Shown here in pieces: positions 17,801 through 64,000 of a stretch of 64,000 nt of DNA. The notes below the pieces were generated by a model. That model saw only the letters and a program-made list of their open reading frames with translations, had not been told where the DNA came from and did no database searches. Within the stretch, counting starts at the first letter, position 1; the number at the start of each line of letters is the position of its first letter. Source of the DNA: Amphiscolops sp. MND2022 (lineage: Eukaryota); contig OZ076409.1 of assembly GCA_964187785.1 (NCBI GenBank), positions 48,114,001-48,178,000 on the forward strand, given 5' to 3'. Made by a program: the position numbers and the translations under genes.

Positions 17801-17953
17801 GGATAAGACACAAGGTTCAAATACCACTATGTCGACATAGTTTCATTGAAATTTTGGTCCAATAAAAAATAATTGATGTCGACATAATCCTATCCATTAC
17901 CTTGACTGACTATTAAAAGTCGCTCATTTAATTTTACAGCGGACAAATTTTGC

Positions 17954-18442
17954 GGACCATGTGATCTATCCCCCCCCAAACTGCGGCGGGGGAAATAATA
18001 CAGTAGGTTCAAATACTAGTTTTAAACGAATTAATTATGTCGACATAACATTTTAAATAGTCAAATACCATTATGTCGACATCGTTGCGTTGAAAATTTA
18101 GTCCAATAAAATAATTGATGTCGACATAATCATATCTTTTACATTGATTGACAGTTAAAATCAATCATTATTCTTTGAAATGTGCTTCCAAACGGACATA
18201 CTTCCATATTTACAATACTACGAACTTTGCATTCAGCATTTAAAAAAATTGGGTCTTTTGCCACGAAGTTTAAATTGTCCCATCTGCAAAAATCGTCTGT
18301 TTTGGACAAGATATAAAAAAATCAAAGATGGTAATTCATTCATTCAATAAATAATATACTTGTGAAAAAGTCGTTTTCGTTTTTTTTGGGGGGGGGGGAT
18401 TCCTAACAAGGTGTACCTGGGGGGGAATAGATCACATGATCC
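17954..18442 (+). mobile_element. Merlin (IS1595-like) non-autonomous transposon, copy A
   Basis: TIR GGACCATGTGATCTAT(C)n / GGGAATAGATCACATGATCC; 8-bp TSD AATTTTGC/AGTTTTGC; internal CIQHLKKLGLLPRSLNCPICK...KDG resembles the Merlin transposase N-terminal zinc ribbon. Confidence 0.7.
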
Positions 18443-19536
18443 AGTTTTGCGATGAAATAGGGACATTTTTATATGATTTTAGTTTGTTTCAAACGTGAAT
18501 TTCTGTTATTTTGGACAATATTGTCAAAAAATGTTATTTTTTTAACCTGGAGAGTCCAAACAGTTGTAGCGACAATCCTCTAAGTATGCATATAAATTCA
18601 TATAATATTCACTTATTAGTCAAATATTTTTATTCAAGAACAAAATGTGTTTTCGTGTTGGGGTAATTCCCAATAAGGTTTACCTGGGGGAAATAGATGA
18701 CATGGTCCTGCTTAGGATCTAAATAGGCTGTGATTTTTCTATGTTTTATCCAAATTACAAAATTTCATGAGATTATGTAACACACAACAAAATAAAACTT
18801 GAATGTTTGACTGTCTAATGAGAATTAACGTAAAAGATATGGCTATGTCGACGTCAATTATTTTATTGGACCGAAATAACTCGCTTGGGGAGAATAGGAA
18901 ACATGGTCTGCCCCTCCTTTCTAGTTTTACTGTTGGAGAAAAAGCGCTGATATATTCACTTCTCAGCTTGTTACACTCCATTCTTTCAACTATTTTGGTT
19001 TTGAGCTCTTCTACTGCATGTAGTTTGGTGCAAGTTTCATCTTCTAGTAAACGCAGGTGTATTGAAGGGCTTCAATAAATAGTGACAGGCGGTCGAAAAG
19101 AAACATTGTAACTGGGAGAGGTCATCGAAGAGTAAATATGCAATAAAGGAAACATTTTTTAAACAGTGTCAATGAACTCTTTTTTATTGGATAGTCTCTA
19201 AATTTATTTATAGAGGATCAATAAAAAAAGAGTTCATTGCTCTTTTGGTAGCTTTTTTGGGAAGGCGTTGCTTGAATGCTTTGAATTAATCATAACAATG
19301 CAGAGATCGGAGGAACAGTATTGAAAAACAACGAAACACAAATGGGACCATGTGTTCAATCCCCCCCCCAAGCGGCCACAGGGGGGGATAAGACACAAGG
19401 TTCAAATACCATTATGTTGACATAGTTTCATTGAAACTTTGGTCCAATAAAATAATTGATGTCGACATAATCCTATCCATTACCTTGACTGACTATTAAA
19501 AGTCGCTCATTTAATTTTACAGCGGACAAATTTTGC

Positions 19537-20019
19537 GGACCATGTGATCTATTTCCCCCCCAAACTGCGGCGGGGGGAAATAATACAGTAGGTTCGAATA
19601 CTGGTTTTAAACTAATTAATTATGTCGACATAACATTTTAAATAGTCAAATACCATTATGTCGACATCGTTGCGTTGAAATTTTAGTCCAATAAAATAAT
19701 TGATGTCGACATAATCATATCTTTTACATTGATTGACAGTTAAAATCAATCATTATTCTTTGAAATGTGCTTCCAAACGGACATACTTCCACATTTACAA
19801 TACTACGAACTTTGCATTCAGCATTTAAAAAATTTGGGTCTTTTGCCACGAAGTTTAAATTGTCCCATCTGCAAAAATCGTCTGTTTTGGACAAGATATA
19901 AAAAAATCAAAGATGGTAATTCATGCATTCAATAATTAATATACTTGTGAAAAGGTCGTTTTCGTTTTGGGGGAATTCCTAACCAGGTGTATCTGGGGGG
20001 GGAATAGATCACATGGTCC
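19537..20019 (+). mobile_element. Merlin-like non-autonomous transposon, copy B
   Basis: Same TIRs as copy A; perfect 8-bp TSD AATTTTGC (19529-19536, 20020-20027); same transposase-like fragment. Confidence 0.75.
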
Positions 20020-20921
20020 AATTTTGCGCTGAAATAGGGACCTTTTTATATGATTTTAGTTTGTTCCAAACATGAATTTCTGTTATTTTGGACAATAACG
20101 TCAAAAAATGTTATTTTTTTTTAACCTGAAGAGTCCAAACAGTTGTAGAGACAATCCTCTAAGTATGCATATACATTCATATAATATTCACTTATTAGTC
20201 AAATATTTTTATTCAAGAACAAAATGTGTTTTCGTAATGGGGTAATTCCCAACAAGGTGTACCTGGTGGGAAATAGATGACATGGTCCTGCTTAGGATCC
20301 AAATAGGCTGTGATTTTTCTACATTTTATCCAAATTACAAAACTTCATGAGATTATGTAACACACAACAAATTAAAATTTGAATGTTTGACTGTCTAATG
20401 AAAATTAACGTAAAAGATATGGTTATGTCGACGTCAATTATTTTATTGGACCGAAATAACTCGCTTGGGGAGAATAGGAAACATGGTCTGCCCCTCCTTT
20501 CTAGTTTTATTGTTGGAGAAAAAGCGCTGATATATTCACTTCTCAGCTTGTTACACTCCATTCTTTCAACTATTTTGGTTTTGATCTCTTCTACTGCATG
20601 TAGTTTGGTGCAAGTTTCATCTTCTAGTAAACGCAGGTGTATTGAAGGGCTTCAATAAATAATGACAGGCGGTCGAAATGAAATATTGTAACTGGGAGAG
20701 GTCATCGAAGAGTAAATATGCAATAAAGGAAGCATTTTTTAAACAGTGTCAATGAACTCTTTTTCATTGGATAGTCTCATTGGATTTATAGAGGATCAAT
20801 AAAAAAAAGTTCATTGCTCTTTTGGTAGCTTTTTTGGGAAGGCGTTGTTTGAATGCTGTGAATTAATCATAACAATGCAGAGATTGGAGGAACAGTATTG
20901 AAAAACAACGAAACACAAAAG

Positions 20922-21420
20922 GGACCATGTGTTCAATTCCCCCCCCCCCCAACTTGAAGCGGCCAAGGTTGAAATACAATTTTGTCGACATCGTTTGCGT
21001 TGAAATTTTGGTTTTCACATAAAAATCACATAAAAAATGTCGACAAAATCGAAATGATTGATGTCGACATAATCCTATCCACTGCATTGACTGTCAGTTC
21101 AAAGTTTCTCATTGGATTTTATCACCGAGAAAGTTTGCGTTGAAATAGGGGCCCTTTTATACTATTTTATCTCGTTCCAAGGGTGAATTTTGGCTAATTT
21201 GGACAAAAATATCAAAAAATGACGGTAAATTTTTTGCCTGAAATGTCAAAACAGTTGTAGAGACAATCCACTAAGTATTTACATTTATATAATACTCTCT
21301 TATTAGTGAAATGGGTTTATTCAAGAACAAAATGTGCTTTCGTATTGGGGGGGGGGGGTTGAATTCGCAACAAAGTGTACCTGGGGGGGGGGGGGGGGGG
21401 GTAAATTGAACACCTGGTCC
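20922..21420. mobile_element. Related Merlin-like MITE carrying the empty site for copies A and B
   Basis: TIR GGACCATGTGTTCAATT(C)n / (G)nTAAATTGAACACCTGGTCC; near-TSD CACAAAAG/CAAAAAAG. Confidence 0.65.
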
Positions 21421-28755: not shown

Positions 28756-30665
28756 AGCTTTCTGAGAAAATTTGAACTATCGGGAAGCTTTTTTCGATTT
28801 CACGTCTAAGACTGATATCATCATTGAGTTGCGTTGTACAACTCTGTCGTTGCCCTTATCTGTTCCCCAATACACTGTCTGCAGTTCAGTTTGCGTGATT
28901 ACAACTTCTTCGTTCGGTTGCCATTTTCTTCTTTGATCCGGAAAATTTTTTTTGTTTCGAATTTGTCTTTTGAGACAATATGTAGGTTTTGCTGTTTATT
29001 GGTTTCCAGTTTGCAAACAGTGATGTTTCAAAGTGGCAATATCATCTCAACTACATACAATATGATCCCTTTTAACTTTCGTTTTGTAATTTGCGATGAT
29101 CTTTGCATGCCCGTGTTCAGCTGCAACTTGAAGCAATAGTTCTTTCATTGATCTGTGCTGCTCTGACTTTCAAATGATAGAAATATTTGTACTTTGAATA
29201 GGATGAATAGGATTCACGTCCAGTTTCCTTGTTTTTCTTATGCAACAGTTCAGTTAGTCAAATGCTCGACTATTCGTATAAAGGAACCAATTGTTTTGCT
29301 TTTCAATACAAATCGGTTATCATCAAAAAAACTTATGTAGTGAGTTGGTTTTCTAAATCATCCGGTAGAAAGTTTCAAGAATAGATGATTTTTTCTCACT
29401 AGTACTAAAATCATTTTCAGCCATTGCAAGTTTTTCATGAAAAGTCTGTGTTTGCAACTTTGGTATGAAATTTCGATAAACTGTGGGTTCCTCTTCTGTC
29501 ATCTGTGGGAAAAGATGAACTCTGGGTGGATGATCGTTCGTTGGATTTAGGTTGTTTATGGTCAGCGATTTTCAATTGCATTGGCAGGAAAAGAAAATCA
29601 GGTATTCCTTGTCGGATGTCTAGACCGTGTAATTCCACCTTGTGGTTTCATTAAAGGAAAGATGTAGTGAGACAGTCATGCACTCCCAAGTAGTGAGACA
29701 GTTATTCTTTCGAGACTTTGAGAAACGTGTGCAATTCGACAAATCCATTTTCAAAATCTAGTTCGACTTCGATTTCCCTTAATGTCCATTTGCTACCATT
29801 TCTCGAGGAACCTCATATGAGCCTTGACTGAGAGCTTAATAATAAGATTGTACATTGATCAATTTCTGGGATTGTGCTTTATGAGACAACCGCATCTACA
29901 ATTTCAGTCAAAGTACGTTCGCCTAATTCCTCGAGATACAGAGAAAATCGCTGTGTCTATTGAAGTTCGTGGTTCTTGAATACTTGAAAAGAATAGATTC
30001 ACCCTGCCGTGCTTTCAAGCCCTGCGAAGATAGCCCCAATTAATCTAATATGTGTAACATGTGGCTCTGTTTCTTCCAGGTGGTCCAAAAGTACTAAGGG
30101 TTAGATCTAGTTCTCATAGCTAAATTGAGGCTTCCATTGAAAGCTGAATGAGATTTTAGTCTATTTGTTCAAAATATCGTTCGCCACATTTTGTCATTTA
30201 TCACGATAGCTTTATAAATGTAGAGAGTTTCGATGGCTGGTGTCATCTTTCTAAAATGGATAACGTTCAAAATCAAGACTTCGCAGAGTAAAGTCTAAAA
30301 TTGTTGGAGAGAGTAAGTTGCCTGAGAGTTACAAATCGTTCAGTTTTGAATGTTTTTTCGGCTAAAGGATGGCGTTACTTCCAGGTGTTCTAATTTTATG
30401 GATTTTGGGTCCTGTGTTTTCAAAGTAGTGAGGTTCAAGCTTGACATGCTTGCTTTTAATTGGTTCTTACATTCCGGTTGAACAAACAATTCGTCTTCAG
30501 TAGTAAGCGAAATCCCGATTCGGGCCAAGCAACAAAAAATTTCAAAAGCACCAACCGCCTCCCCCCTTTAGAGGCACTTTCCAAAAACAAATCAACAAAT
30601 TGGCGTTTTTACCAATTCAATGTAAAAGCAATGCAATATAAACAACTGGCGTGGACATAAATTTA

Positions 30666-30750
30666 GTTCCAATGGCTCAGTGGTTAGACCACTGGAATTT
30701 TACGTTCGCGCAGCTTCACACGTGTTCGAGTCCGCGACAAAGCATATTTT
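30666..30750 (+). ncRNA. Putative tRNA-like Pol III unit in the left TIR (mirror copy at 51005-51089, minus strand)
   Basis: A-box TGGCTCAGTGG (30673-30683), B-box GTTCGAGTCC (30724-30733), TTTT at 30747-30750. No canonical cloverleaf. Confidence 0.5.
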
Positions 30751-34493: not shown

Positions 34494-37400
34494 TGTCATG
34501 CAATGCATGATTTAATTTCTCGGACTTTTATAACAATGAAATTGACTGATGAATCACGCCATTGATGAATCATTATTGCCTTTGATGTCACTCAATCCAA
34601 ATAATTGACAATTTAATCCCGCAAAATGGATTTTCAACTGGATATGTTTCGACAAGGAATTTTCAAGGTTATGTTTTGTTTCCATGCCCTTCATAGTCAA
34701 CCCTTTATGTGAACTGTTACATTGAATTAAGCCTAAGTCTTAGACCGCTTTCTTGAACATTCAATATGAAATATTACTAAACCTTTTACTAAGTAACGCC
34801 TTTCATTTCCGGTATTTGGAGACTGCCTGGAGACATACAGGTACTAAGTAGTCTTTCTCTAAACTTTCTTCAACTACTATACACATTATTTTGGCGCCCC
34901 TTATTCTGACCCGTTTACCCTTAATTACCTTAGTTTTCTTCGTTGGTTTGCGAAATTTTCGTTACAAAGTTCTAATTTTATTGCCTTATCTTAAGTTTGT
35001 TGATTTAATTGACATACTACGAAGGATACCAGTTTGATTAAAATGGTTTCCACGCGAAGTCAAGGTCAAAATGATGACAACGTGGATGTTGATGTAGCCA
35101 ATAGCAATGAGCTCGACGCATTGAATTTGGCTCATGGGCAAACTTCCAACGATAGCGTTGCTAACATGCAAGTGGCGCAAAATGATAATGAAATTTCACG
35201 CTTGTTGTCACTACAGCAACTTAGTCTGGACGACATTCATTGCTCACTTGATTTTGTCAATAATTGTATTGACGCAAACGAATCCACTGATATGTGTCGG
35301 GAATTTTTTGTGGAAACAGAGCAAAAGGTGGATGAATTTGAGTCTTTAACGAAAGAAATCATTCTACTTGCAAATACCCACCTTCATACCCAGTCAGAAC
35401 GACTAGCTGAGGTTAAGAATGACTTGCGAACTATTCGCTTGAAGGTAATGAAAAAGCGCAGTTCTGATCAATTGTGCAAAACTGCTCGGCCTACGGTAAA
35501 TGACACAACTTCTAATGAACGTATAGTCACTTCTAACAACCCTCTACCGGCCTTCACAACTGTTGACCTCTCTTCAGAGTCGAATATTCCTGGAATTTCT
35601 TCAACAACTGCTGGAACCAATGGGACATTATTCCGCGAAGCCACAGTCGATCAATCGCATTTCGCTCCTTATTTTCCTCAAGGAGTTGGAACATCACAGA
35701 GGATGTCTTCAACATTCCAAAAATCAATTCCCAAAGTCACACCCACAGTGTTCAATGGAGACCCGCTTCTCTGGTTAGATTGGATTGGACTCTTTAATGC
35801 CACAATTCATTCATCTGACATGACAACAGCTGAAAAAATGATGCATTTACAAACACTTGTCAAGGATCAAGCAAAGTCTACCATTCGTGGATATGGGTAC
35901 AATGGAGACATGTATTTCATTGCACTGAAGCGCCTTCAAGACACATTTGGAAATCCAACTAAAATTATCACCTCTTTTCTGCAACGCCTCAGCAGCCACC
36001 CTTCTCCATCTCTCCGACAACCCGATTCTTTTACTGCCTTTTCCAATTTTTTGACGACCTTAGTTGACACTTTCGAGCAGTTGAATTTTCAGCACGACAT
36101 ATGCTCGACAACCAACGTTCAACAAGCCTTAGCAAAGCTACCCACAGAAACTAGACTAGCCTGGAACCGACATGCCGTCTCTTCAGGACTCCAACGACCG
36201 ACGCTAAAAGACATTACCTCATGGTTACAGGAATTCGCTCTCGCCTGCAGTGAAATTCCTGTAGCAAAACATCTCGCACCTTCTGAACACTCGACAGCAA
36301 AGTTCTTTCGACCTTCAAGTTCAACAAGCAGCGCTCTCCACCAACCTTTTGCCAACGACAAAACACACTCAGCACCATCAACGGACAAAGTCAAAAAAAA
36401 TTTCTGTCCCGAATCAAAGGGATGCGATCTGCTTCGACAATGCCCTCATTTCAAATCCCTTAATGTTCAGAACAGATACGAACACGTTAAAAAATTGAAA
36501 CTTTGTTTCAATTGCCTAGGACCTCACGCCTTTAAGGATTGTAAATCCGAAACATCCTGCCGAATTGAAGGTTGTCACCGACGACACCACACGTTGTTGC
36601 AACGTGATCAGCAACCAGCAGTAACTTCAACAGTCAACACCCGACGTCATCAGCCTGGTATTTTGCTTTTTGTTCCCGTTACCTTCTCTTACGGAAACAA
36701 TCGACTTTCGACATACGCCCTGCTGGATTCCGGAAGTTCTGTGACACTACTTGCCGAATCAGCCGCCAAACAATTGAAACCCAATCTACAGGGTAATCAA
36801 CCACTCAGTGTTTCTGGGATCAACACTGTTGCAGAAATACAAGTAGCAACCCTATAATGTTTCATCGGACCGTACAACTCCGCTGTTCAGCCTCACAGAC
36901 TCGACAATGTTCTTTCAGTGCCAACACTGAACGTTCAAACAGCGCAACCGAATTTTCTCAACTCAGTTTGCCAGCAACATCCTCATTTTAAACACGTCAC
37001 ATTCCCGCAACTACATTCTAATAATGTTTCACTCCTGATCGGAGTGGACGCTTATGATGTTATTTGCAGCCGAGGAGTCATTTATGGACCACCCAACACA
37101 CCCAAAGCACTGAACACAGTTCTTGGATGGACAATAGTAGGAACCAGCAGTCATCAGCTACCAACGACAGCAGAGACACTTCTCGTCCAAACGCCCACAT
37201 TGGATGACGAACTTTTTCATCAAGTTCAAAATTGGATGCGACTTGACATTGAAGGAGTTTCTTCAACGAAAAAAGCGTTTTCAGCCAACGATCGTCGCGC
37301 CGAGAACATTCTCCAGTCTACAACAACGAAAGTTGGAGACCGATACCAAATCGGCCTTCTCTGGAAACCAAATGTTGATCTGCCCAACAATCGATGGGTT

Positions 37401-40400
37401 GCCGAACGCCAGCTGCGCATCCTCGAACAACGCTTGCAGAAAGACCCAACACTCAAAGAGCAATACAAGAAAACAATCGTTGACGATCTTGCCAAGGGTT
37501 ACATCGTAGAAGTACCGACAGTCGACGCCACTTTGAAAAAATGGTACCTTCCACATCATCCAGTTACCAACGTTAACAAACCAGGAAAAGTTCGTCGCGT
37601 GACAAATGCCATCAGTGTCTTCAAAGGACAGTCACTCATCAACAATTTACTTACAAGACCGGCTTTTCTTTGCAACCTAACAGGATTGATAATGCGATTT
37701 CGCCAACATTCAGTCGCAATATCCGCCGACATTGAGGCCATGTTTATGCTAGTGCTTGTGGACCCTAAAGACCGACAGTATCTACGTTTTTTATGGAGTA
37801 ACGACTCGAAGAAAATCGAATTCGAGTACACCAGGCATATTTTCGGGGCAACAGACTCCCCTTGCGTTGCCTGCTATGCCGTCCGCAAATGCGCCAAGGA
37901 CAATGAAGCTGTTTATCCTGGTCTGCCCGCAATTTTGCAGCGGAACATTTATATGGATGATTTGTATGTCAGCCTCACATCAGAAGAAGACACCACAGAT
38001 ACAGCTCGGAAACTTCGGGAAGTTTTAGCATCAGGAGGTTTCAACCTAACCAAATGGAGCTCGAACAGCCGTAAGTTCCTAGCAGGTTTGAGCCCCGAAC
38101 TACGAGCAACTGGAGCCAATCACGACGATAAATTGACACTGCAGCGGGTCCTTGGTTTGCCATGGGACCCAGAGAAAGACACGTATCTCATCCAACTCGA
38201 AAGCTACCGTAAAGCCAAGGACATTCGAATACCAACTCAACGCCATCTGCTGAAATTTACTTCTTCTATATTCGATCCCTTAGGGATCACAGCACCGTTA
38301 ATCATTCGTTTGCGATATATTATGCAGCTTGCTTGGAGCACCGGACAACAATGGGACAAACCTATTCCAGAAGATCAACTCGCAGAATTCCAACAGTGGA
38401 CCGATGAAATTGACCATCTCGAGAATATTCAACTACCTCGACAGCTGCATAATTACCGAAGTCAGCCCGAACATCATGAACTTCGTGTTTTCTCCGATGC
38501 GTCCGAGAAAGCATTCGCCGCAGTTGCCTACCTGCGTACAACTCACGACGACAGTCACGTCAGCATCACTTTTTTAATCGGAAAAGCAAGAGGCGCCCCA
38601 ATGAAACGACTCACAATTCCGAACTTAGAACTTCAAGCAGCCACATTAGGAAGCCGCCTTGCTACCTACATCAAAGAAGAACTCGACCTCCACATAGCTC
38701 GGACATTCATGTGGACGGACAGTACAACCGTTTTACACTGGATCAACGCCTCTAATCAAAGACACAGGATTTTCGTAGCGAACCGCTTGAATATTATTTT
38801 CGACTCGACAGAAGCTTCAGATTGGCGATACGTTCCAACTATCGAAAATCTCGCAGATGATGGAACAAGAGGATATCAAGCTAACCAGATGAATGCCACT
38901 TCACGTTGGATTCAAGGACCCTCATTTCTACAGAAAAAAGAACAGTTTTGGCCAACACAGCCTCCAATTTCTCAACAAGTTGCTATGTTTCATGCCGACG
39001 CACCACCTGACTGCAGCACTAGCCCTCCTTTTGACATTACCCGCTTCAGTAATTGGAACCGTCTAATCAGGACCGTTGCTTTCTGTTTCCTCGTTGCCGA
39101 CAAAGCCAAAAACAGTCAAGCCTCCCTTACTTTGGAACATGTTATCAAAGCATTCAAGTTCCTCATCAAGAATGCTCAGCAGCAGTCCTTCTCCAAAGAA
39201 ATAAACGAGCTTTTGCAGAAGAAATCCCTATCTAACAAGTCTAGGATTGTACAACTCAGTCCCTTCATCGACGACCATGGCTTCTTCCGTTCTCGTGGCC
39301 GCCTTGGAAAGGCCTCGATAATTCTTTGTAGCCGATACCCAGTCATCTTGGATGCTGAGAACCCTTCGATCCACCTCTACTTGAAACACGTTCACGACAC
39401 CAATGGACATTGTGGACTCGAGTTCAGCCGTGCCCTGATTCAACAACAATTTTGGATTCTGAAAGCCCGGAAAGTGTTACGACGAATCATCCGACATTGT
39501 ATCACCTGCCGCAGACAGCAACAAGATGTTATCCAGCCAATAATGGCTGATTTGCCGAAAGAAAGGCTCCCTTCTACAATCAATTATCCCTTCCGCACCA
39601 CTGGAATTGATTACATGGGACCGTTCTTCATTAAAACTCCACGTGCCGAAAAACGGTACGTCCTTTTCTTTACCTGCCTCGTTACAAGAGCTGTTCACAT
39701 CGAAGTTACTGCAAAATTAAACACAGACGACACAATTCTAGCCATTCGACGATTCATTTGCCGCAGAGGCCAGCCTCAGTCTGTCAGATCCGACAACGCA
39801 ACTACATTTGTCTCTGCCAACAAAGACCTAAAAGCTGCTTTGAAGAAACTTGAATTAGCGTCACCAGAGATTTCAGCTCGTCTTGGACTCCAACATATCG
39901 CCTGGTATTTCAACCCACCCGCTGCTCCTCATTTTGGGGGCGCATGGGAGCGGTTGATCCGCTCTTTCAAAGACACCTTCTACAAAATTGTTGGATCAAG
40001 AACCCTTCAAGAACCGACGCTACACACCTTTGCCTGTGAAGTTGAGGCTATCATGAACAACGGCCCACTTCTCCACGTTTCTTCAGACGTCACCGACATG
40101 GAGCCTTTACTCCAAATCATATTTTACTTGGTAGACCTCAGCCAGTTGTACCAATAGGTATCTTTGACCAAGACGCAGACGCCTACACCTGGAAGAAAGC
40201 CCAAGTTCTGGCCGACAATTTTTGGTCCAGGTTCATCAAAGAGTACCTCTCCACACTTCAACGAAGAACCAAGTGGACAAAAAACTCAGAAGATTTAAAT
40301 CCTGGAGATTTAGTCTGGATTTTAGAAGACTTCACAGCCCGTGGAATATGGCCCGCTGGAAGAGTTAAATCCGTCACTAGAGGAACTGACAATGTAGCCC

Positions 40401-40936
40401 GCTCATGTGACCTCGCCACATCTTTTGGAATTATAAAAAGACCTGCAGTGAAACTTTCGAAACTCTTCATTTGTGACCGCGACTAACCCAGACCATCTCA
40501 AACTTCATGACTTGCAAACTCTGGTAGTTTATTTGCCTCCTGCAAATGGGGCCGGCCATGTCATGCTTTTCTCGGACTTTTATAACAATGAAATTGACTG
40601 ATGAATCACGCCATTGATGAATCATTATTGCCTTTGATGTCACTCAATCCAAATAATTGACAATTTAATCCCGCAAAATGGATTTTCAACTGGAGATGTT
40701 TCGACAAGGAATTTTCAAGGTTATGTTTTGTTTCCATGCCCTTCATAGTCAACCCTTTATGTGAACTGTTACATTGAATTAAGCCTAAGTCTTAGACCGC
40801 TTTCTTGAACATTCAATATGAAATATTACTAGATCTTTTACTAAGTAACGCCTTTCATTTCCGGTATTTGGAGACTGCCTTGAGACATACAGGTAAAAGT
40901 AGTCTTTCTCTAAACTTTCTTCAACTACTATACACA
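34494..40936 (+). mobile_element. BEL/Pao LTR retrotransposon inserted in Polinton 1
   Basis: LTRs at 34494-34885 and 40559-40936 (TG..CA); 5-bp TSD ACACT (34489-34493, 40937-40941); PBS TGGCGCCCC at 34892. Confidence 0.97.
35043..40486 (+). pseudogene. pol: BEL/Pao gag-pol polyprotein (in-frame stop at 36855-36857, frameshift near 40108)
   Basis: Gag FNGDPLLW...; knuckles CFNCLGPHAFKDC and CRIEGCHRRHH; protease LLDSGS; RT YLPHH / ADIEAMF / YMDD; RNase H FSDASE; integrase GIDYMGP / SDNAT / WERLI. Confidence 0.95.
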
Positions 40937-50599: not shown

Positions 50600-51257
50600 C
50601 GTTGAGATATTAGGCAACTTATCTTAACGCAAAAGCTTAACGCAAAAGCTTAACGCAAAAGCTTACCGCAAAAGCTTAATGCAAGAGCTTAACGCAAAAG
50701 CTTAACGCAAAAGCTTCTCGCGGCTTCCGTCGACCGACACCATGTGCTACAGACGTCCACCGCTCGCAAATTAACTACACAGGATTTTACCTCCCACTGG
50801 TTAATTCACTATAGAGCTCCAGTTTATGTAACACACAATCTTTTCCCCTCCCGAAAGTGTGTCCTGGTAAAGCTCACGTCACTATTGCCAACACTGCTCG
50901 AAAGCGGAGGAAAGGATGACAAATCCTTTTAAGCAATGAGTAACTTGTCAGTAAAAATAATATACTAACTTTCTTATATACCCCCCTCCACTAATGGTGA
51001 AATTAAAATATGCTTTGTCGCGGACTCGAACACGTGTGAAGCTGCGCGAACGTAAAATTCCAGTGGTCTAACCACTGAGCCATTGGAACTAAATTTATGT
51101 CCACGCCAGTTGTTTATATTGCATTGCTTTTACATTGCATTGGTAAAAACGCCACTTTGTTGATTTGTTTTTGGAAAGTGCCTCTAAAGGGGGGGGGGGG
51201 GTTGGTGCTTCTGAAATTTTTTGTTGCTTGGCCCGAATCGGGATTTCGCTTACTACT
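50600..51257 (-). repeat. Right TIR of Polinton 1
   Basis: Inverted copy of the left TIR; 7 x CTTAACGCAAAAG at 50623-50713. Confidence 0.95.
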
Positions 51258-54130: not shown

Positions 54131-55248
54131 GGAAGCACATGAGCTCGGGCAATGTTTTCTTTATGACCACAGTTATCATTTGTTGCTTGATTGATTTTGT
54201 GCTCTCCTATTTCATTGACAACTCTTTCGATTGACAACTCTTTTCGAGCAAAAGTTTTGGACTTCGTGAGTGAAATGTGGAGATTCATTGAGTTGGGAGA
54301 AAATTGAAGCAGGTGTTTGCGGAAATTTTGCATGTTTTGAATTGAATAAAAAACTGATGTTTCCCCTTATTGAACTAACCAACAGATGCTGATACTCCTT
54401 CTCTTACAACTTATTGTGGATATAACCTCATATTGATCAAAATAACAAGTTCGCATTTCAATTGTTATTCTAACGAATTACACGGCTTCACAAAATTATA
54501 AATATACTTCACAAGGCTCAAATAACAATCTGACAGCAATGTTTTGTCGTATACTGCGTTCGTCAAAAATCCGAGTGCATTATATTGAATTATATTTAAG
54601 TATGGTGGATTAGTACTGTTTTAGAAACAAGCTGGGACCGCCGTCCGAAGTCGACGCTCCGCTCAAATTTCAAAAAACCATGTTTCTGGAAATAATGCAA
54701 AATACACTATGGTTTGAATGTTATCAATTTCGCAGTGCCACGACATGCCCTCAAAGAACGCATAGGGCTCGAAAATCACTTTTTCCCCAACTGAAAACGA
54801 CAAAATAAAACATTTTTCCGATTTTTTTCTTCGGAAAGAAGTCTCATAATGCCAAAAATGGAGCTTTAGAGAGAAACTACTCAGAGAACTTTTATCAAAT
54901 CTATAGTACCAAAAATATACAGTAGGGATACGCATCAGACTCGGAAACCGAGTTCTCCGGAGCTCGAAACAAAACAATTATAGTAGTAGTGGAAATCCCG
55001 ATACTGGCCACAAAAACTCCAAAAATTAAAAGTACTCAAAACCATTGATTTTAAGGACTTTTTAGAAAACATATCATTAAAAACAATGGTTTTCCGATAC
55101 TGGCCAACAAAACCCCAAAAATTAAAAGTCCGCGAAGCTACGCCAAAACCATTGATTTTAAGGACTTTTTAGAAAACATATCATCAAAAACAGTGTTTTT
55201 GCCATGAAGCAAAATTCACTAACCTCTATAGTTTAATGTCAACGTTGC

Positions 55249-55367
55249 AACCAGCGCTAATGTACAACCAGCGTTAATGTACAACCAGCGTTAATGTACA
55301 GCCAACGTTAATGTACAGCCAACGTTAATGTACAACCAACGTTAATGTACAGCCAGCGTTAATGTAC
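55249..55367. repeat. 7 x 17-bp tandem repeat (AACCAGCGTTAATGTAC) in the terminal region of element 2
   Basis: Read directly from the sequence; a ~95-bp duplication precedes it at ~54998-55200. Confidence 0.9.
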
Positions 55368-55412
55368 CGGCGCATACGTTATTCTTACATAACTCCAACT
55401 AACATTGATTCG

Positions 55413-55658
55413 TCTCCCATAGCTTAGTGGTTATAGCATTGACTAAAGTTAAGGCTTCGGCCGGAGTGTTTGGGGTTCACTTCTATCCAACGTCCCCCAG
55501 TCTTTGTTACAACTTACATGCTATGGGAGAATAATCACCAATGGCACAGTTCTTAAAAAGGATAATCCCTGCTGTGGAAACTCTTAGTGGAACGGACTCC
55601 CGATGGGCTTTGAGTTTACCATAGGTATGCCAATACCAATGGCATGCCTATGGGTTTT
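55413..55658 (+). ncRNA. Putative structured tRNA-like/Pol III RNA in the terminal region of element 2
   Basis: TCTCCCA-TAGCTTAGTGGTTATAGC (A-box/D-arm); GGC-TTCG-GCC hairpin; 11-bp closing stem with GCTATGGGAGA (55520-55530); 14-bp 3' hairpin (55619-55653) directly before the first TTTT. Confidence 0.55.
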
Positions 55659-55686
55659 GTATTTTTCAACTTTTTCATCTTAATAA

Positions 55687-56502
55687 ATGTATGAAACTCC
55701 GTCTCTTCATAAGTTTGGTTTTTCTAGTGAACAGCTAAAACTGAGGGAATATCAGGAGCTAAAAGATATGATAAAAAGTCAAGAAAAATTAGCCCAAATA
55801 GCACATCCCAAATTGAAAGAAGATTTGCAACGCGATTTTGAAAATGACATAGAAAATCAAGTAGAAGAAAAAATGCTAGACGCGGTAGCTATCGCGAAGG
55901 CGCATCAAACACTAGACCCACAGGAAATTCAAGATGTTTTATTAAACACAAAGTTAATGAATGATATTTATTCCCAGTTTTCAGACCTTTCAAAAACCAT
56001 AAATAAATTAGAACAAAATATGAAAAAATCTTTCGCCGAACAAAGAACTGCTTTAGTAAATGAGGTACTAAATTTAATACACAACAAAAGTTTTGAAATG
56101 TTAACAGTCCGTAATTTAAAGTTTATGAGTCAGGCGGGTCAAGCTGGAATGATTTTAAATGAAGATGAAATAGATAATATTCTTAATAGCCTAGATCAAA
56201 ATAAAATTACTATAACTAACAACATAATTCAACTGCTTTATGACAAAGGTTTGTTCAATTCCTTTCCCAATAAAGATCAAGCTTTTGCAAATTATCTAAC
56301 TTTCAGTGAAACATACTTATCGGAGAAGTGTGGAAAAACAAAACCTACTTCAGATGGTGAATATTATCTGTCTGATTTCGATTATTATACCAGAGAAAGT
56401 ATTTTGAAGTCATTGAAAAAAGATTCCTGTATAGATATAGTTGATAAGAAACACAGAATGAAATTAACACCAACGGAAATAAGTTTCGTTTTATATGAAT
56501 AA
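55687..56502 (+). CDS. Conserved hypothetical Polinton protein, 271 aa, intact
   Basis: Open ORF with TAAATG start; close homolog of 49755-50554. Confidence 0.8.
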   Translation: MYETPSLHKFGFSSEQLKLREYQELKDMIKSQEKLAQIAHPKLKEDLQRDFENDIENQVEEKMLDAVAIAKAHQTLDPQEIQDVLLNTKLMNDIYSQFSDLSKTINKLEQNMKKSFAEQRTALVNEVLNLIHNKSFEMLTVRNLKFMSQAGQAGMILNEDEIDNILNSLDQNKITITNNIIQLLYDKGLFNSFPNKDQAFANYLTFSETYLSEKCGKTKPTSDGEYYLSDFDYYTRESILKSLKKDSCIDIVDKKHRMKLTPTEISFVLYE

Positions 56503-56505
56503 TAA

Positions 56506-57097
56506 TTGGAACAAAAACTCTATCCCTCAGCGCCCTATTTAAATAGCGATGTAGAATCAGTGATAAATAAGCAATTATCAAAAGTATGTAGTTTCGATAA
56601 TTCTGTTCAAAATATCATGATGATGATGGCGATGAAATTTTATGAGTTGGAAAAAAATATATAAGCAAAAATTCACCAAATAGAAACTAATAAATAACCT
56701 AATTAACTCGACAGATGGTCTTATAACAATAGGAACAACTTCAGCATCCGTTACACTAAGTATTGCTGGTGTGGGCATTATAGTTGTTCCAATCACTGCA
56801 GGAGTTGGTTGTGCAACTGGTATTCTTGGTAAAATTTGTTCCAGTTATTTGAAGAAAAAGGAGCAAATTATAAACTTAAGTACACTTTAATTCAGAAGAC
56901 ACATGGTGACTTTGGACAACTTCATGTCACAAGCCTAAAAGATAACCATATAGATGAAAAAGAATAACATCGATTGATTTGTGAATATGTATGAAAGTTA
57001 TCGTGCAGCTTCGCGCGCAGCTTCACAATCACAAAGTAAAAAAATTCAACAAGCGACAAACAAGCTTGATACACCAAAACTAACCGTCGTTTTATAA
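56506..57097 (+). pseudogene. Membrane protein homolog of 49125-49751 (decayed)
   Basis: EQKLYPS...GTTSASVTLSIAGVGIIVVPITAGVGCATG, with stops and frameshifts. Confidence 0.75.
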
Positions 57098-57193
57098 TGA
57101 AGGTATCCCATTTTAACAACTGTTTTAACATAAAAAAGCAAAACAATTTGAAAAATATTTCGCTATTAAATTCGTAAATTTTTAATTAAAAAA

Positions 57194-60100
57194 ATGGAGA
57201 TTTGTAGTATTTGTATTTCTGATTTAAAAAATCCCTTAAGCCTGATCATCTAAAATCAGTAAAACATTTGGAAAAAAATATCAATATTTTTGTTTAAAAT
57301 ATAATATATTTCTGCCTCTATCAGGCAAGTCAAATCATCTAAATTCAAATGATCACAAGAATAAAACCAAACATCAACACATTTGGTGTGAAGATTGTGG
57401 TAAAAGTATGTGGTATATTGTGGTATAAGTGACAAAACAAGACATATCCAAAGAAAAAGTATTTCACAAATGGGTTAAATCAGATATTAATTACAATCAC
57501 ACATTCCCTGATCATACAATTCACAACACATTAATGCAGAAATTAGATGATGAACATTTAGAAGGATCAGGTTTTGTGGTAAACGGTATTGTCAATGTTA
57601 TATTAGAAATATACAAAGTCAATGATATTCAAGCATCTTCGTGGATTGAATTACCACCAAAGTAAAAGAATAGTCAATCAATTATAAACATTGAAAAAAA
57701 TTGATCAATTTTGTTTTCTATGGTGCATCCTAGCATATCTATATCCCGTTGAAGACAATAAAAAAATAACTTCAAAATATGCTATGTATATACCTACTTT
57801 ATGTACCAAAGGTTAAGAATTCCCTATGAAAGGTAAAGACATTCTCAAGTTCGAAAACTCAAATAATTTAAACGTAAATGATTTTGAACCCACAAAGAGT
57901 GTGCTAACACACCTATCCTCATTAACAAAAAATACTTACAAACACAAATAGACTTGCTGCAATTTGAAAATCATTATTGCCTAATAACAAAATTGCCTTG
58001 TCTAAAAAATAAAAATTCACACATGAAATGGGTGTGTAGAAGATGTCTAACAGCATTTAGTTTAGAACAACTTTTATTCGATCATACATCTCGTTGTATA
58101 AATCAACAACCAACTAATATCACATTCAGTTGAAAGGATCACTTAAAATTCGAAGACTACCACATGAAGATACCACTCATAATTTGAGTATATGCGGATT
58201 TCGAATGTAATAATCAATCCACAAGAAACGACCAGAAGGTATTATTTGAACAAATTCCAATTGCAGTAGGATTTTATTCAATAACACCATCTGGAATTTG
58301 CTATTACTCATACTTCGGCGAAAGCTGCGTAACATGGTTTGTAAAAGAAACATTTTCATTAGAAACAATTGCTTGTAACTGTTTCAGAACCAATATTCTT
58401 CTTAAAGTGACCCCCGAAGAAGAAGAAGAATCATTTCAACACTCCAACATATGTTGGCTTTGTGAATATCCACTTGGTGGTACGCAAGGCGCGCGCAGCT
58501 TCGCATCCAATGATAAAGTTCGAGATCATGATCATCTTACAGGCAAGTACCGAGGAGCAGCTCACAACAGGTGTAATTTGAATTGAAAAAAAGTCATCAA
58601 GTTTTGTTCCCATATTTTTCCACAACTTTTCGGGGTACGATTGTCATTTAATTTTTGAAGAACTCTTAACATCAGCTTAAAATCTAAAGTTACCAATAAA
58701 TATTATACCAAAGTCAATGGAAAATTATGTGTGTGTGCAAGTAGGTTGTTTAAGGTTTTTAGATTCATACAGATTTTTGAGTAGTAGTCTACAAAAACTT
58801 ATAACATCATTAAATGATTTTCCTTATATGCCAAATGAGGGCCTAACTGATGATTTTTTAAAGAAAAAACTAGCTTATCCATACGAAAAATTCAATCTTA
58901 ACAACCTGCATGAACCACTAAATCTAACAAAAGAGGACTATTGGTCAACATTAACACAATCTCACCCATGTGAGGATTATATAAAAAGAACCCAACAACT
59001 GATTGACACTTACAACATTACAACAGCACAAGAACTAACAGAATTGTACTTTAAAATGGATGTACTACAACTCACTGACGTGTTCGAAAACTTTGTTGAG
59101 AAGTCTACACTTGAATACGGCATCAATCCTTTGTACAGTTACTCTTTACCTGGTTATACATGGAAAGTTGGTTTAAAACTTACTAAAATTAAATTAGATT
59201 TCATAAAAGACAAACAGTTATTATTACTACTTGAAAACAATATTCGCGGAGGAATTTCAAGTGTAATGGGACCCAGATTCATTGAGTCAAATGAAAATAC
59301 TAAATTACTGTACATTGATGCAAATAACTTGTATGGATGGGCAATGAGTCAATACCTTTCTACTGGAGACTTTAAAAAGATGCAAAACTGTCACGAAGCT
59401 AGGCAATATGATTCTACACTGATGAATGAAATTACAGAAGACATTTTGAATACACCAGATGACAATGAATTTGGATACTTTATAGAATGTGATTTAGAAT
59501 ATCCAGCAGAAATTAAAGAAAAAACCGAAAACTTTCCACTTTGTCCTTATCAAACAAAAGCCGATCCAAATCTTTTCTCAGAATACATGAACAGTGTAAA
59601 ACAATCCAACTACAAACCAACCGAGAAACTTATGTGTGACCTAACAAATAAATATAATTATATGATGCACTACATGATGTTCAAGTTTTACACCCAGATC
59701 GGGATGAAAGTAACAAAGATTCACACAATCTACCGGTTCAAACAATCACTTTGGTTAGAAAAATACATTAATCATAACACACAAAAACGCACCAAAGCAA
59801 AAACAAACTTTGAAAAGGATTTGTACAAATTAATGAACAACGCTTTCTTTGGTAAGACTATGGAAAATGTTAGAGACCCGACTAATTTAGAGTTTATCCC
59901 TCACACCAATATTGATCAAATAATAAAAAGACAATCGAAGCTTTAAAAGAATCACTAATAATTACTCCGAATTCAGTGTTTACAAGTTTGATAAGGAAAA
60001 AGTAATTTTTGATAAACCAATATACTTGGGGTTTAGTGTTTTAGAACTGAGTAAATTGTTAATGTATGAGTTTTATTATCACAAATTACAACCATATTAT

Positions 60101-60775
60101 AACAATAAAATTAAACTGCATTACATGGATACAGACTCATTCATTCTAAGTATTAAAACTGGAGACCTTATAAATGATTTGGAATACTTCAAAGATGATT
60201 TTGATTTCAGCGAGCTCGACCCAAGTCATGAGTTGTACAACTCAATCAACAAGAAAGTTATAGGTAAAATGAAAATAGAAACATCACCAATTATTGAATT
60301 AGACAACTTCGTAGCTTTGAGATCTAAATCATATTCTTTTAGCTATGGAAGCACAGTTCAGAAAGCAACGCAAAAGTCAAAACAAAAAGGAATACAACAT
60401 ACACCAATTTATTCACAATTTATAAATTCATTATTTAACTCTGAAACAACAACTGCAACTAATTATTCTATTAGAAGTAATGCTCACAACTTAACTGTTC
60501 AGAAACAAGATAAGCTAGCTTTGAATCCTTTTGATGACAAGCGTATGTACTTGAATCCAATACAAAGTTTATCATGGGATAAACACACACAAAAAGGTGA
60601 TTGTCCTTGTATACTTTGTATAAAATTAGTTTGTTTGTATTACACCGAACTGAGCACAAAGGATGGCACAAGCCTCCCAGATGAAGAAATATGCTATAAC
60701 ATTTGGACTCTGAAAGAAAAATTGAATCATCAACAGCTTTTAAATCTGATAAGTGATCGGGCCCATTTATTGTGA
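57194..60775 (+). pseudogene. polB: Protein-primed PolB of element 2 (fragmented)
   Basis: FHNFSGYDCH, YIDANNLYG, KLMNNAFFGKTMEN, YMDTDS and FDDKR motifs; endonuclease VII-like RDHDHLTGKYRGAAH. Confidence 0.93.
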
Positions 60776-60899
60776 TAACTATCGTGATAACTGGTGTGAC
60801 GCGTAGCTTCGCGATAGCTTTCGCACACACACCCATTATTTTAACATTATTTTAACATTATTATCACGTTAGTTATCACATCATTAGTCTCATATCAAA

Positions 60900-62143
60900 T
60901 CAAACGAGGTCAAAATGCCTTTGCCCATCACTACTAATACTTATTAGTTTTGGGGTTAATACAAGTGCATAAGCTATATAATCTGCTACATCAATGGCAG
61001 CATTAAATTTAAACTCTAAACGGATTGGTTGACTCGCAATGATATCCCTTTGTTTGCTGAGGTCAAATACATAAAAATTATAATTTGTTCTGAATTTGTT
61101 CAAATCAATAAATGGGTTGAGTAAGTTAGTTTCACTATTCAAGTGACAAAAGTTTTCAATTTCACTATATGCTTGATCATATTTGTCGCGGTCGTAATCA
61201 CATTCTATCCCATCATCGGGATATTTTTCTGATCCTATTTTACAAACAGCATTACTAATTGGCAACCGGTCAAACACTGCATTATCATGAACCAGAGAAT
61301 CAATTTTATTTCTAGCTTGAAATCCAACAATCACAAAAGTTGGAGTCTTTTGCGCAGCTTCGCCTCCACTGCTGCCTAATTCAAATGTCCAATTCGAATT
61401 CGTGTTAACATCTTTTCTAAAAATAATTCGTTCCGTGTAACTCAATTCGGTTGGATCTTTATTTAGAATTTGGTCCATGACAAGTTGTTGGTTTTCGATA
61501 CTGGGAACATAGTGTGGGATATACCAACCAATGTCTTTAAGAACCACTTTTGCAGCATCCACTCCAACACTTCTTAAAATGGTGTCATTGTTAGTGTTCC
61601 GTTTTAAAGTAAGAGTGTAGCCCAACCCATAAGTTATTTTTCTTGATCAGCAAATCCAAAGTCTTTTAGTTTTATTCTCACAAAAAAGGTTCCTTTCTCA
61701 TTTTTGTTGTTTGTTAGTTCTTGTCTTCTGACACTCAAATTTTCTTCAAACCCATACAATAACTGGGAAGTTTGACTAGTGCTTGTTAGAAGTTTATACA
61801 TTAAAGGAATCAAGTGTAAATTGTCAACTTTTTCTAGGTGTTTCCCATTAGAAGTTGTTAATTTGGCTTCACTAAATAGAGAGATTGGCCCAAAGTTAAC
61901 CAATCCAATTTCATCACCATCAGCAAATCTTGTATTATTGTTTTAAAGTACTTCAAATTCTAGACTTTTGAAACTATTTTGTAAACATATGTATGCATCT
62001 TCTCTTGGCAAACTGACACTTATATTCGAGTTTGCGTTATTGACTGTCGCCAAACTACTTGGACTATACTATATGAAATCAATTTTATGAATAGGTTTTT
62101 CAAGAGTGTATTTATTTTTTAAAGAAAACATATCTGTGTTCAT
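60900..62143 (-). pseudogene. DJR major capsid protein of element 2 (frameshifted)
   Basis: ORFs 61634-61903 and 60900-61625 are colinear with 43826-45050. Confidence 0.8.
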
Positions 62144-62212
62144 TTATAATAAAAAATTATTGCGAAAGCTCCGCGAAAGCTCTGTAAAACTATGTGGGCA
62201 CAGTTTCGCAAA

Positions 62213-63068
62213 TTACTCAAATTTGTGGAAAATATTCATATTTTCTAACGTTTTGTTGTTAGAGTCAAAGTTGAATATGCTTCTTAAAAAATCTTGTTCA
62301 TAGTATTTTCCTCGAATAATTTCTCCATTTTCATCATTTAGAGTGTATGTTACTGGGTTTGTTTTGTTGATGCTGTGTATTTTAAAAAGTTCTCTATTCC
62401 AATTTGTTGTATAACCTTTTGAATAAATATTCCTTTTGTCAGGAACTCTTACAAAATCCCCCACTTGGAATTTGGGTTGTTCCGGTTTATTAACAAAAGT
62501 AGGTGGATCTATTGGTTTTTTATTCGCTTCAAAAGGTGTCATTTTTGTTGTGGTATGGACACGATTAAATATACTTATCCAAAGCATTATTAATGTGATT
62601 CAACCAGTTACCTTTACCCTCAATATACATTGGTTCTTTGATTAAGTCCAAAAGTGTTCTATTGAAACGTTCAACAAAAACAGCCTTCAAATCTGAATTA
62701 GTTGAATAAATTTGAATGTTTTGCTCTTTTAAATATTGTAAAAATGTTGTGTTGTAAAACTCTTTACCTCTATCACTCCAAATTTTGTGTGGTTTTCTCT
62801 TCTCTTTTTCAATGAGACCTTTTAATGCAGTAGTTGTACTTTTTAATGATTTATCTTTGAGGGGAATCGCCCATGCATATTTAGTATGATTGTCAATTAT
62901 TGTCAATATAAACTTGTAGTTTTTGTTGTATTTGCCTAAATTTGAGCGATCAATTAAATCGATACTCCAACATACATCTTTATAGTGAGTTTGTATTTGA
63001 ATTCTTTGAAACTTCTTGATTACAGGAGAGAATATTTCTTTAGCAATTTCTTTCTTATTTTGATTCAT
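62213..63068 (-). pseudogene. rve integrase of element 2 (frameshift near 62570)
   Basis: WSIDLID, IDNHTKYAW, WSDRGKEF, VERFNRTL; C-terminal KGYTTNW...YYEQD. Confidence 0.9.
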
Positions 63069-63091
63069 TTATAACAATTTTTTATAAATAA

Positions 63092-64000
63092 ATGAATAAT
63101 GATTATTGCTTGCAGAGCTATAGAAATAATTATCAAGGTGAAGGAGACGGCGCGGGAGGCGGCGCGAGAGCTGGTGCAACCAATTGGTTTCATAAAACAC
63201 GAATCTATAAACTAATCACAAATCCTATGTTTATTGTATGTTTAATTATATTTATAGGTATTAATGTTGTAATATATTGGAATTATATTCGCCCTAGACA
63301 GTTTAAAACAATTTATGAAAAACTACTACAATTTGCAGGGTTCAAATACTCTCATCTGACAAACCAGGAACGCGAAGCCCCCCTGGATACACGCGAAGCT
63401 ACGCACAACAACAACTCACATAACAATTCTCATTGCAACGCGCATTTCATATTCTATGGCAGTAGTGGCTCTGGGAAGACAAGTTTTTAAAAGCATTATT
63501 TGGCACAACGTCCCCACGACAAGTCCTGTGATAACCCCCGCAGTTATTTAGTATTTGGGAGAGATGAACGTGAGTTTCCCTCTCAAAATTTTGTACCACT
63601 ACTGCAGTTGGAGAAAGTTAGTATTGAATCACTTGCTAATAAAATTGTTGTACTGGATGATGCAGGTCCATACAAGAACCTTAGATTGAAAGTAGAAGAC
63701 CTTTTCCGATTTGGTAGACACTTGGGGATTCAAGTAATTTATCTCGCTCACTATGCAAAGGATGTACTTCCAATCGTGAGGGAAAATTGCTTCAAAATAT
63801 ACTTAACAATTAATAACCCAGATAATTTCTTCGAGCCGATTGCACAAACTTATGCAATAGCTTCCGCGAAAGCTAACGCAATTAATGGACTTAATTGGAA
63901 ATACTACCGGGATCAGTTAGAATATGGCATAGTTGAATTTGACACAAGGAGTCAGAAATACAAGGTATTAAACAACAAGTACAACTTAATTTATGATTCG
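63092..64000 (+). pseudogene. TM-anchored packaging-type ATPase of element 2 (nonsense TAA at 63488, runs off the window)
   Basis: MFIVCLIIFIGINVVIYW is in the same frame as Walker A GSSGSGKT; downstream LDDAG, RFGRH and VRENC. Confidence 0.85.

Follow-up and report, generated by a model that had tools for sequence, protein, structure and literature searches.

Polintons are kin to adenoviruses through a protein-primed polymerase and a double jelly-roll capsid, a domain also found in the Polinton considered here, and they have so far been described by their proteins. An A box and a B box, the latter binding TFIIIC most strongly, occur on a decayed tRNA body in tRNA-derived SINE heads and in tDNA/TFIIIC barrier elements. 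Among viral RNA genes of this general kind, the adenovirus VA RNAs are characterized in the accessible parts of PMC7589676 and PMC6599070 by boxes A and B, a GGGU/ACCC stem, a T4 end, a length of ~160 nt and three domains, with a proposed tRNA origin. The TMERs of murine gammaherpesvirus 68 are 200-250 nt long and combine a tRNA-like part with hairpins that follow it (PMC4838037, accessible sections). In bovine leukaemia virus and foamy virus, the Pol III pri-miRNA genes are single short hairpins that stop at the terminator, beyond which the B box often lies (PMC4267658, accessible sections). The literature searched, which excluded subscription journals, Repbase notes and supplements, contained no report of a Polinton-encoded RNA gene, and the terms VA RNA, polymerase III and noncoding returned nothing in the accessible text of the adintovirus paper PMC8502044.

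The window analyzed here (G000:C1:48114001-48178000, 64,000 nt) carries a candidate RNA unit on the plus strand, folded as the 246-nt stretch 55413-55658. An earlier note, made from the letters alone, had placed it next to the terminus of the element that we call Polinton 2. It is indeed near that terminus, but it is actually the innermost 255 nt of the left terminal inverted repeat (54982-55666, plus strand), beginning 430 nt in from 54982. The repeat begins with AGTAGT, family homology starts at or near 54982, and its inner boundary is a T5 run (55662-55666). Since the left and right ends diverge directly after this run, the inner end of the repeat is also the predicted terminator. The carrier has the features of the Polinton class, namely AGT-type ends, inverted repeats, a 6-bp target duplication (flanking the window copy at both ends), and integrase, double jelly-roll capsid and A32 ATPase domains encoded by the window copy and an intact family copy combined; the polymerase B gene was recognized by eye and has no Pfam match. 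Intact elements bear two inward-facing units, one per end, separated by 14-15 kb, and the window copy's own right end is without it. On the left, the first Polinton ORF (ORF1, 55687-56502, plus strand), which encodes 271 aa and matches no Pfam family, begins 28 nt past the first T4; at the other end, the unit precedes a different gene, with an ORF within about 100 nt.

A 16-nt core of the unit has 452 exact matches in the genome (control, 0). All 30 copies examined, the first by position of these 452, lie within Polinton ends, adjoining ORF1 in 18 cases (left ends) and the right-end interior in 12; none of the 30 is free-standing, and the sample showed neither a tail nor a target duplication belonging to the unit itself. 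The unit is therefore fixed in the end repeat of the family and is not a host SINE inserted only in the window copy, the outcome that the earlier note had named as fatal to its reading. Of two motifs for diverged versions in the genome, one returned a single locus, an ordinary family copy, and the other returned none. Searches of viral and metagenome contigs by DNA pattern or protein, which reach only close relatives, found no relatives.

The earlier note had described a tRNA-style 5' end, an 11-bp stem, a UUCG hairpin, a weak B box and a hairpin directly before T4 at 55655, with the start of ORF1 shortly beyond, and all were found where it had put them. At the 5' end, a check of the motif against the sequence gives 7 nt and then an A-box/D-arm-like 18-mer. 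The tRNA-type A box (55420-55430, plus strand) matches the motif and overlaps the 11-bp stem; its single shared variant, present in 5 of 62 copies, falls on a free position. The A-box/D-loop pattern, which was composed after the motif had been seen, recurs in 15 of the 3000 shuffled versions of the repeat. The B box (55474-55483, plus strand) has one mismatch, the conserved A of GTTCNANNC being missing, and by a rough estimate a one-mismatch B box at such spacing is near chance expectation; the box is mostly retained across 62 genome copies and is more decayed in one contig of the public run X2, discussed below. Upstream of the unit, a 17-nt tandem array (55231-55384) varies among copies and is followed by a TATA-like run (55385-55392, plus strand), a putative promoter element that lies at about -27 to -20 in most copies and in which the window copy bears a rare substitution, the common base being present in 55 of the 58 covering copies. 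The predicted transcription start, G55412 on the plus strand, is preceded by a pyrimidine, lies 8 nt before the A box and shows no substitution in 62 copies, whereas positions 55405-55411 vary. The T4 and T5 runs at 55655-55666 (plus strand), the predicted Pol III terminator, coincide with the inner repeat end, the first T4 standing at +244. ARAGORN reported no tRNA gene in the whole window, and the Rfam search gave no match to the unit at E values up to 5. The first 32 nt of the unit are identical to sampled host tRNAs at ~20-21 of 32 positions, with only Lys- and Arg-type arrays sampled.

The 246-nt stretch has a minimum free energy of -89.3 kcal/mol (z -4.43), and none of 200 shuffles folds equally well. 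Domain 1 alone (55412-55531) gives z -4.3 and the segment 55532-55618 alone only -1.0; in these predictions, the fold signal comes from domain 1 and the 3' hairpin. Domain 1 (55413-55530, plus strand) is predicted to form a rod, in which an 11-bp terminal stem (55413-55423 with 55520-55530, plus strand; supported by a position check and by folding) extends through inner helices with symmetric loops to ~24 bp, most pair probabilities being ~0.99. The cap consists of a G4/C4 stem and the C(UUCG)G hairpin (55453-55462, plus strand), the latter with a pair probability of about 0.47. Because the 11-bp stem and the inner rod are predicted to form, the D-arm is excluded (p 0.0000) and the TTGAC/GTTAA stem (55439-55443 with 55448-55452, plus strand), which competes with the rod, is nearly so (p 0.006). 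Thus, the stems listed in the earlier note are all present as sequences but are not mutually compatible. The computed energies are -40.6 kcal/mol for the rod, -37.3 kcal/mol for a rod with three hairpins including TTGAC/GTTAA, and -23.7 kcal/mol for a cloverleaf, which is therefore ~17 kcal/mol costlier than the rod. With the cloverleaf disfavoured and the D-arm excluded, the tRNA 5' half would survive as promoter sequence and not as a tRNA fold. Domain 2 (55545-55617, plus strand) comprises two small predicted hairpins of near-invariant sequence, whose fold is no better than that of shuffles. The 3' hairpin (55619-55653, plus strand) has 14 bp in the window copy (arms 55619-55632 and 55640-55653), including one G-U pair; among copies, its basal 11 bp are retained and its top and loop length vary widely.

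Variation within the genome was quantified in two sets of copies. For the first set, copies were selected through the ORF1 start and thus independently of the RNA unit, the first 30 of its 312 matches being used; this set contained 24 full units (including the window copy), 2 copies with the cassette of a sister Polinton described below, 1 with only the 3' third of the unit and 3 with none of these. Counting as shared any allele present in two or more copies, and scoring against the window copy, the other 23 full copies have 3 shared alleles in 200 nt of the unit (55413-55612) versus 66 in 813 nt of ORF1. No shared allele falls within 55531-55612, and the outer repeat of the same copies has 0.14-0.32 shared alleles per site. 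The difference between the unit and ORF1 (Fisher p 2.6e-4) and that in the shared-to-singleton ratio (p 0.027) are both optimistic, because the copies are related and the alleles were scored against the window copy. The unit is under stronger constraint than its adjoining gene.

The second set was fetched by the core, which was itself left uncounted; from 70 copies, 8 that were the window copy or partner ends were dropped, leaving 62. At paired sites, 30 of 40 singletons break pairs and 10 keep them, matching the neutral-decay expectation, and all shared alleles taken together divide into 6 that keep pairing, 5 that break it and 3 that are mixed. Five of six shared alleles keep pairing (p 0.01) under a cut-off chosen afterwards, which demanded at least 3 copies, dropped two sites beside the variable 3' loop and counted a mixed G-U to G-C change as keeping. 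The commonest stem variants in the 62 copies yield G-U pairs on the plus strand (in 8, 3 and 14 copies) or close a mismatch (in 15). Double compensatory changes were not seen among the copies inside the host genome. Shared 12-nt insertions sit in the apical loop, the inter-hairpin linkers, the top of the 3' hairpin or past T4, and none was seen inside the strong helices of these copies.

Two public runs, X1 and X2, hold parts of the stretch as assembled contigs, and the similarity of their units is inflated because the runs were found via this very stretch. In X2 (organism A), whose differences were assigned to contigs through the depth and distance columns, 14 of the 201 letters aligned in one contig (55431-55631) are different, compared with 14-19% in the five coding pieces listed for this run. 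In its 11-bp stem, read from the unaligned 5' letters by eye together with the difference table, all six changes keep pairing. They include two double changes (C-G to U-A and A-U to G-C), and two further pairs turn to G-U. The earlier note had taken a lack of covariation as grounds for abandoning its reading, and the terminal stem does vary with its pairing kept. The inner helices of the same contig lose three pairs and gain one; the pair 55442-55501 is lost both here and in X1, so that relatives may prefer the three-hairpin fold. Two further contigs of X2 are ~12% different plus gaps, about like coding DNA, and break several domain-2 pairs, with one double change at 55579/55616; one of the two is the contig with the more decayed B box. 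X1, an RNA run from a mixed-community metatranscriptome (small share 0.14), yielded six contigs, 40-134 nt long, that map to 55432-55659 and have short loose ends, and 55661-55890 is covered by none of its contigs in this one study at depth 2-5 and without strand information. This pattern fits a discrete RNA as a weak hint, and we do not count it as evidence.

Set against the described systems, the unit shares with adenovirus VA RNAI/II an A box inside a long terminal stem, a T4 terminator and a proposed tRNA origin (PMC7589676, PMC6599070, accessible parts); the best candidate for the internal B box of the VA RNAs has its one mismatch at the conserved A. Unlike the VA RNAs as these parts describe them, it has no GGGU/ACCC stem (GGGT occurs at 55473 and 55652, with no ACCC), measures ~245 nt instead of ~160 nt, and has a terminal stem that closes at +119 (55530), with ~125 nt beyond, so that its 5' and 3' ends are not paired with each other. 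The apical region is weakly paired, without a long apical stem, and the unit is located in both end repeats and matches no Rfam model. Since the tetranucleotide stem, the length and the end pairing all disagree, it is not a VA RNA by membership, although, by analogy, it may work like one. The earlier note had called it VA-RNA-like, and that reading is supported in part.

The layout is closer to that of the herpesvirus TMERs, with which the unit shares a length of 200-250 nt, a type 2 promoter, a T-run and a tRNA-derived 5' part followed by hairpins. The TMER4 stem-loop works whatever its sequence, and the top of the Polinton 3' hairpin likewise varies (PMC4838037, accessible sections). Unlike the TMERs in that account, the 5' part is not a cloverleaf by either ARAGORN or folding energy, the hairpins are too short for typical pre-miRNAs, and the virus is unrelated. 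The pri-miRNA genes of bovine leukaemia virus and foamy virus also resemble the unit in being compact type 2 units of an integrating virus with the A box within the 5' arm of a hairpin, but the Polinton unit is longer, has several domains and keeps its B box internal (PMC4267658, accessible sections). With SINE heads and tDNA barriers, it shares the two boxes on a decayed tRNA body; it differs from them in its confinement to Polinton ends in all 30 copies examined and in the strong constraint on its sequence and stem.

The unit, located in the end repeat, present twice per intact element, constrained, and changing its terminal stem with pairing kept, is a real, selected, structured element. 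We consider it probable that it is a structured RNA transcribed by Pol III. On balance, and with slightly less assurance, we favour a Polinton noncoding RNA gene read by host Pol III whose transcript acts in trans as a decoy of the dsRNA or silencing machinery; the defence-decoy or small-RNA role taken by itself is tentative, about half as probable as the Pol III transcription. Under this proposal, TFIIIC would bind the A box and the weak B box, aided by the upstream TATA-like run. Transcription would start at G55412, head into the element and stop at the T4/T5 runs, each element having two copies of the gene. The tRNA 5' half would be kept as promoter and refolded into the rod of ~24 bp, and the ~245-255-base transcript would consist of a long terminal rod and three predicted hairpins. 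The rod might then engage Dicer, Exportin-5 or another dsRNA-binding defence protein, or be cut into small RNAs, and either engagement or cleavage could ease the expression or replication of the Polinton. The weak B box is the chief doubt about the Pol III transcription step. The lack of double compensatory changes within the genome, the split of all shared alleles at paired sites into 6 keeping, 5 breaking and 3 mixed, the broken inner pairs in relatives, the 12 of 20 sampled Polinton ends with neither cassette and the ordinary fold of the sister cassette also speak against the proposal; the presence of an A-box/B-box/T4 cassette in the ends of a sister lineage speaks for it. To our knowledge, PKR is a vertebrate protein, so the anti-PKR role suggested by analogy in the earlier note is unlikely if the host is an invertebrate.

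Other readings would explain part of these observations. In one of them, which we regard as unlikely, Pol II transcripts begin downstream of the TATA-like run and continue into the first gene at each end, with the unit serving them as a structured 5' leader or a cis-acting RNA. The position of that run ~25 nt upstream in most copies, the short distances to an ORF at both ends, the weakness of the B box and a selection on plus-strand pairing that suits any RNA agree with a leader, but it would have to accommodate 8 ATGs upstream of the ORF1 start and a structure of ~-89 kcal/mol, and the full unit is missing at 6 of 30 ORF1 starts. ORF1 also has the same start context as most other Polinton genes, which have no such leader; the unit recurs at the other Polinton end before a different gene, and an A box exactly at the tRNA position is left unexplained. 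A leader of the 55687 gene, the second option of the earlier note, is weakened accordingly. An action as DNA is no more probable, whether as a TFIIIC/Pol III insulator against host silencing or as a single-stranded DNA hairpin in strand-displacement replication or integration. This reading agrees with the presence of the unit in both end repeats and with domain 1 folding alike as DNA on the two strands (-15.5 versus -15.4), and it may fit the sister cassette, which retains its boxes without an unusual fold. However, the B box is the weak one here, yet conservation extends over 200 nt of sequence and the stem; the common variants make G-U pairs on the plus strand only, and the loss of domain 1 from both ends did not stop elements from transposing.

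A captured SINE head or tRNA-derived passenger, spread to both ends by repeat homogenization and now functionless, would account for the resemblance of the first 32 nt to host tRNAs and for the existence of deletion lineages and of sister lineages with a different cassette or none. We judge it very improbable, and largely refuted by constraint: no copy among 30 lies outside Polinton ends, the unit is less variable than the adjoining gene and far less so than the rest of the repeat, and double changes occur across organisms. Barely more probable is a TMER-like precursor, in which tRNase Z would cut after the terminal stem and the hairpins or the rod would be diced into targeted guide RNAs. The length and order of parts match those of the TMERs in the accessible sections of PMC4838037, an unpaired A follows the acceptor-like stem and the sequence of domain 2 is invariant, but there is no cloverleaf, the downstream stems have merely ~6-14 bp and the upper part of the 3' hairpin is free to vary.

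The genome itself allows natural comparisons that bear on the favoured reading of a Pol III decoy RNA: the copies number in the hundreds, one lineage is without the promoter half, a sister lineage has a cassette of another kind, and a further lineage shows none at the end that was examined. Polinton 1 (30499-51257) and Polinton 2 (54982 to L031:5305) are arranged head to head with 3.7 kb between them, and each is flanked by a 6-bp target duplication of its own. Elsewhere, two family-2 Polintons stand in tandem with ~1 kb between their ends (G000:C5:32190000-32210000). Within Polinton 1, an LTR retrotransposon occupies 34516-40867, with near-identical direct repeats ~6 kb apart and gag- and pol-like ORFs, of BEL/Pao type by eye. 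The end repeat of Polinton 1 contains a tRNA-type cassette of its own (30665-30749, plus strand) with an A box, a full B box and a T4, and a second, inward-facing copy is found at the other end (51006-51090, minus strand). This cassette has 99 exact matches, and all 30 fetched adjoin terminal sequence of the Polinton 1 family; its fold is ordinary (z -0.24), and no Rfam model matches it either. Beyond it come a TATA-like run and ~270 nt of repeat sequence that is fairly well conserved. The matched body segments of the two Polintons are 74-92% identical, whereas their end repeats differ, a sequence pattern that suggests repeat exchange between lineages.

Among 20 Polinton ends picked for diversity from capsid matches, 7 have the full unit, 1 has its 3' third and 12 have neither a cassette nor ORF1; six of these 12 termini were read, and a third lineage among the Polintons has no cassette at the one end examined. 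A deletion takes away the promoter and domain 1 together at 7 ends; in two elements, it affects both ends. Since such elements have nevertheless transposed, domain 1 is dispensable in cis for spread, in a lineage that is rare, and the occurrence of this lineage fits a factor supplied in trans. A wider possibility, which we hold only tentatively and consider rather doubtful, is that the end repeats of animal Polintons give rise to VA-like Pol III RNAs and that sister lineages swap, lose or share the cassettes in trans. If this were true, RNA counter-defence against invertebrate RNA silencing would be a general trait of these endogenous viruses, and adenovirus VA RNA would have its functional forerunner in Polinton RNAs. 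Should the RNA prove to be made, it would be an endogenous-virus counterpart of the VA, EBER and TMER RNAs in a host probably without PKR; this would point to RNA silencing or another dsRNA sensor as its target and bear on the origin of VA RNA.

Several further features of the window and the genome deserve mention. The 12-nt sequence GCGYAGCTTCGC, a near-palindrome counted with up to 2 mismatches, is repeatedly inserted in Polinton DNA, often in frame in genes. It matches 38 times in 23.4 kb of Polinton (30499-51257 and 54982-64000) and 3 times in 40.6 kb of other sequence; the polymerase or integrase of the element itself may produce it as a micro-insertion. At most Polinton gene starts, 12 of the 16 ORF starts listed, an AT-rich run precedes a TAATAAATG or ATAAATG context (55679-55689 in the window). 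We take this motif to resemble a poxvirus late promoter, and it also resembles an overlap of stop, poly(A) and start signals. The accessible text of PMC11296320, in which the terms TAAATG and promoter are absent, lends the poxvirus-type reading no support. Long tandem tRNA-Lys/tRNA-Arg arrays occur at G000:C7:5.23-5.34 Mb, at C8:47.9 Mb and on C1504, and they contain anticodon variants, including apparent stop-reading ones. Finally, host DNA at 17700-21400 of the window forms a tandem repeat with units of ~1.58 kb.
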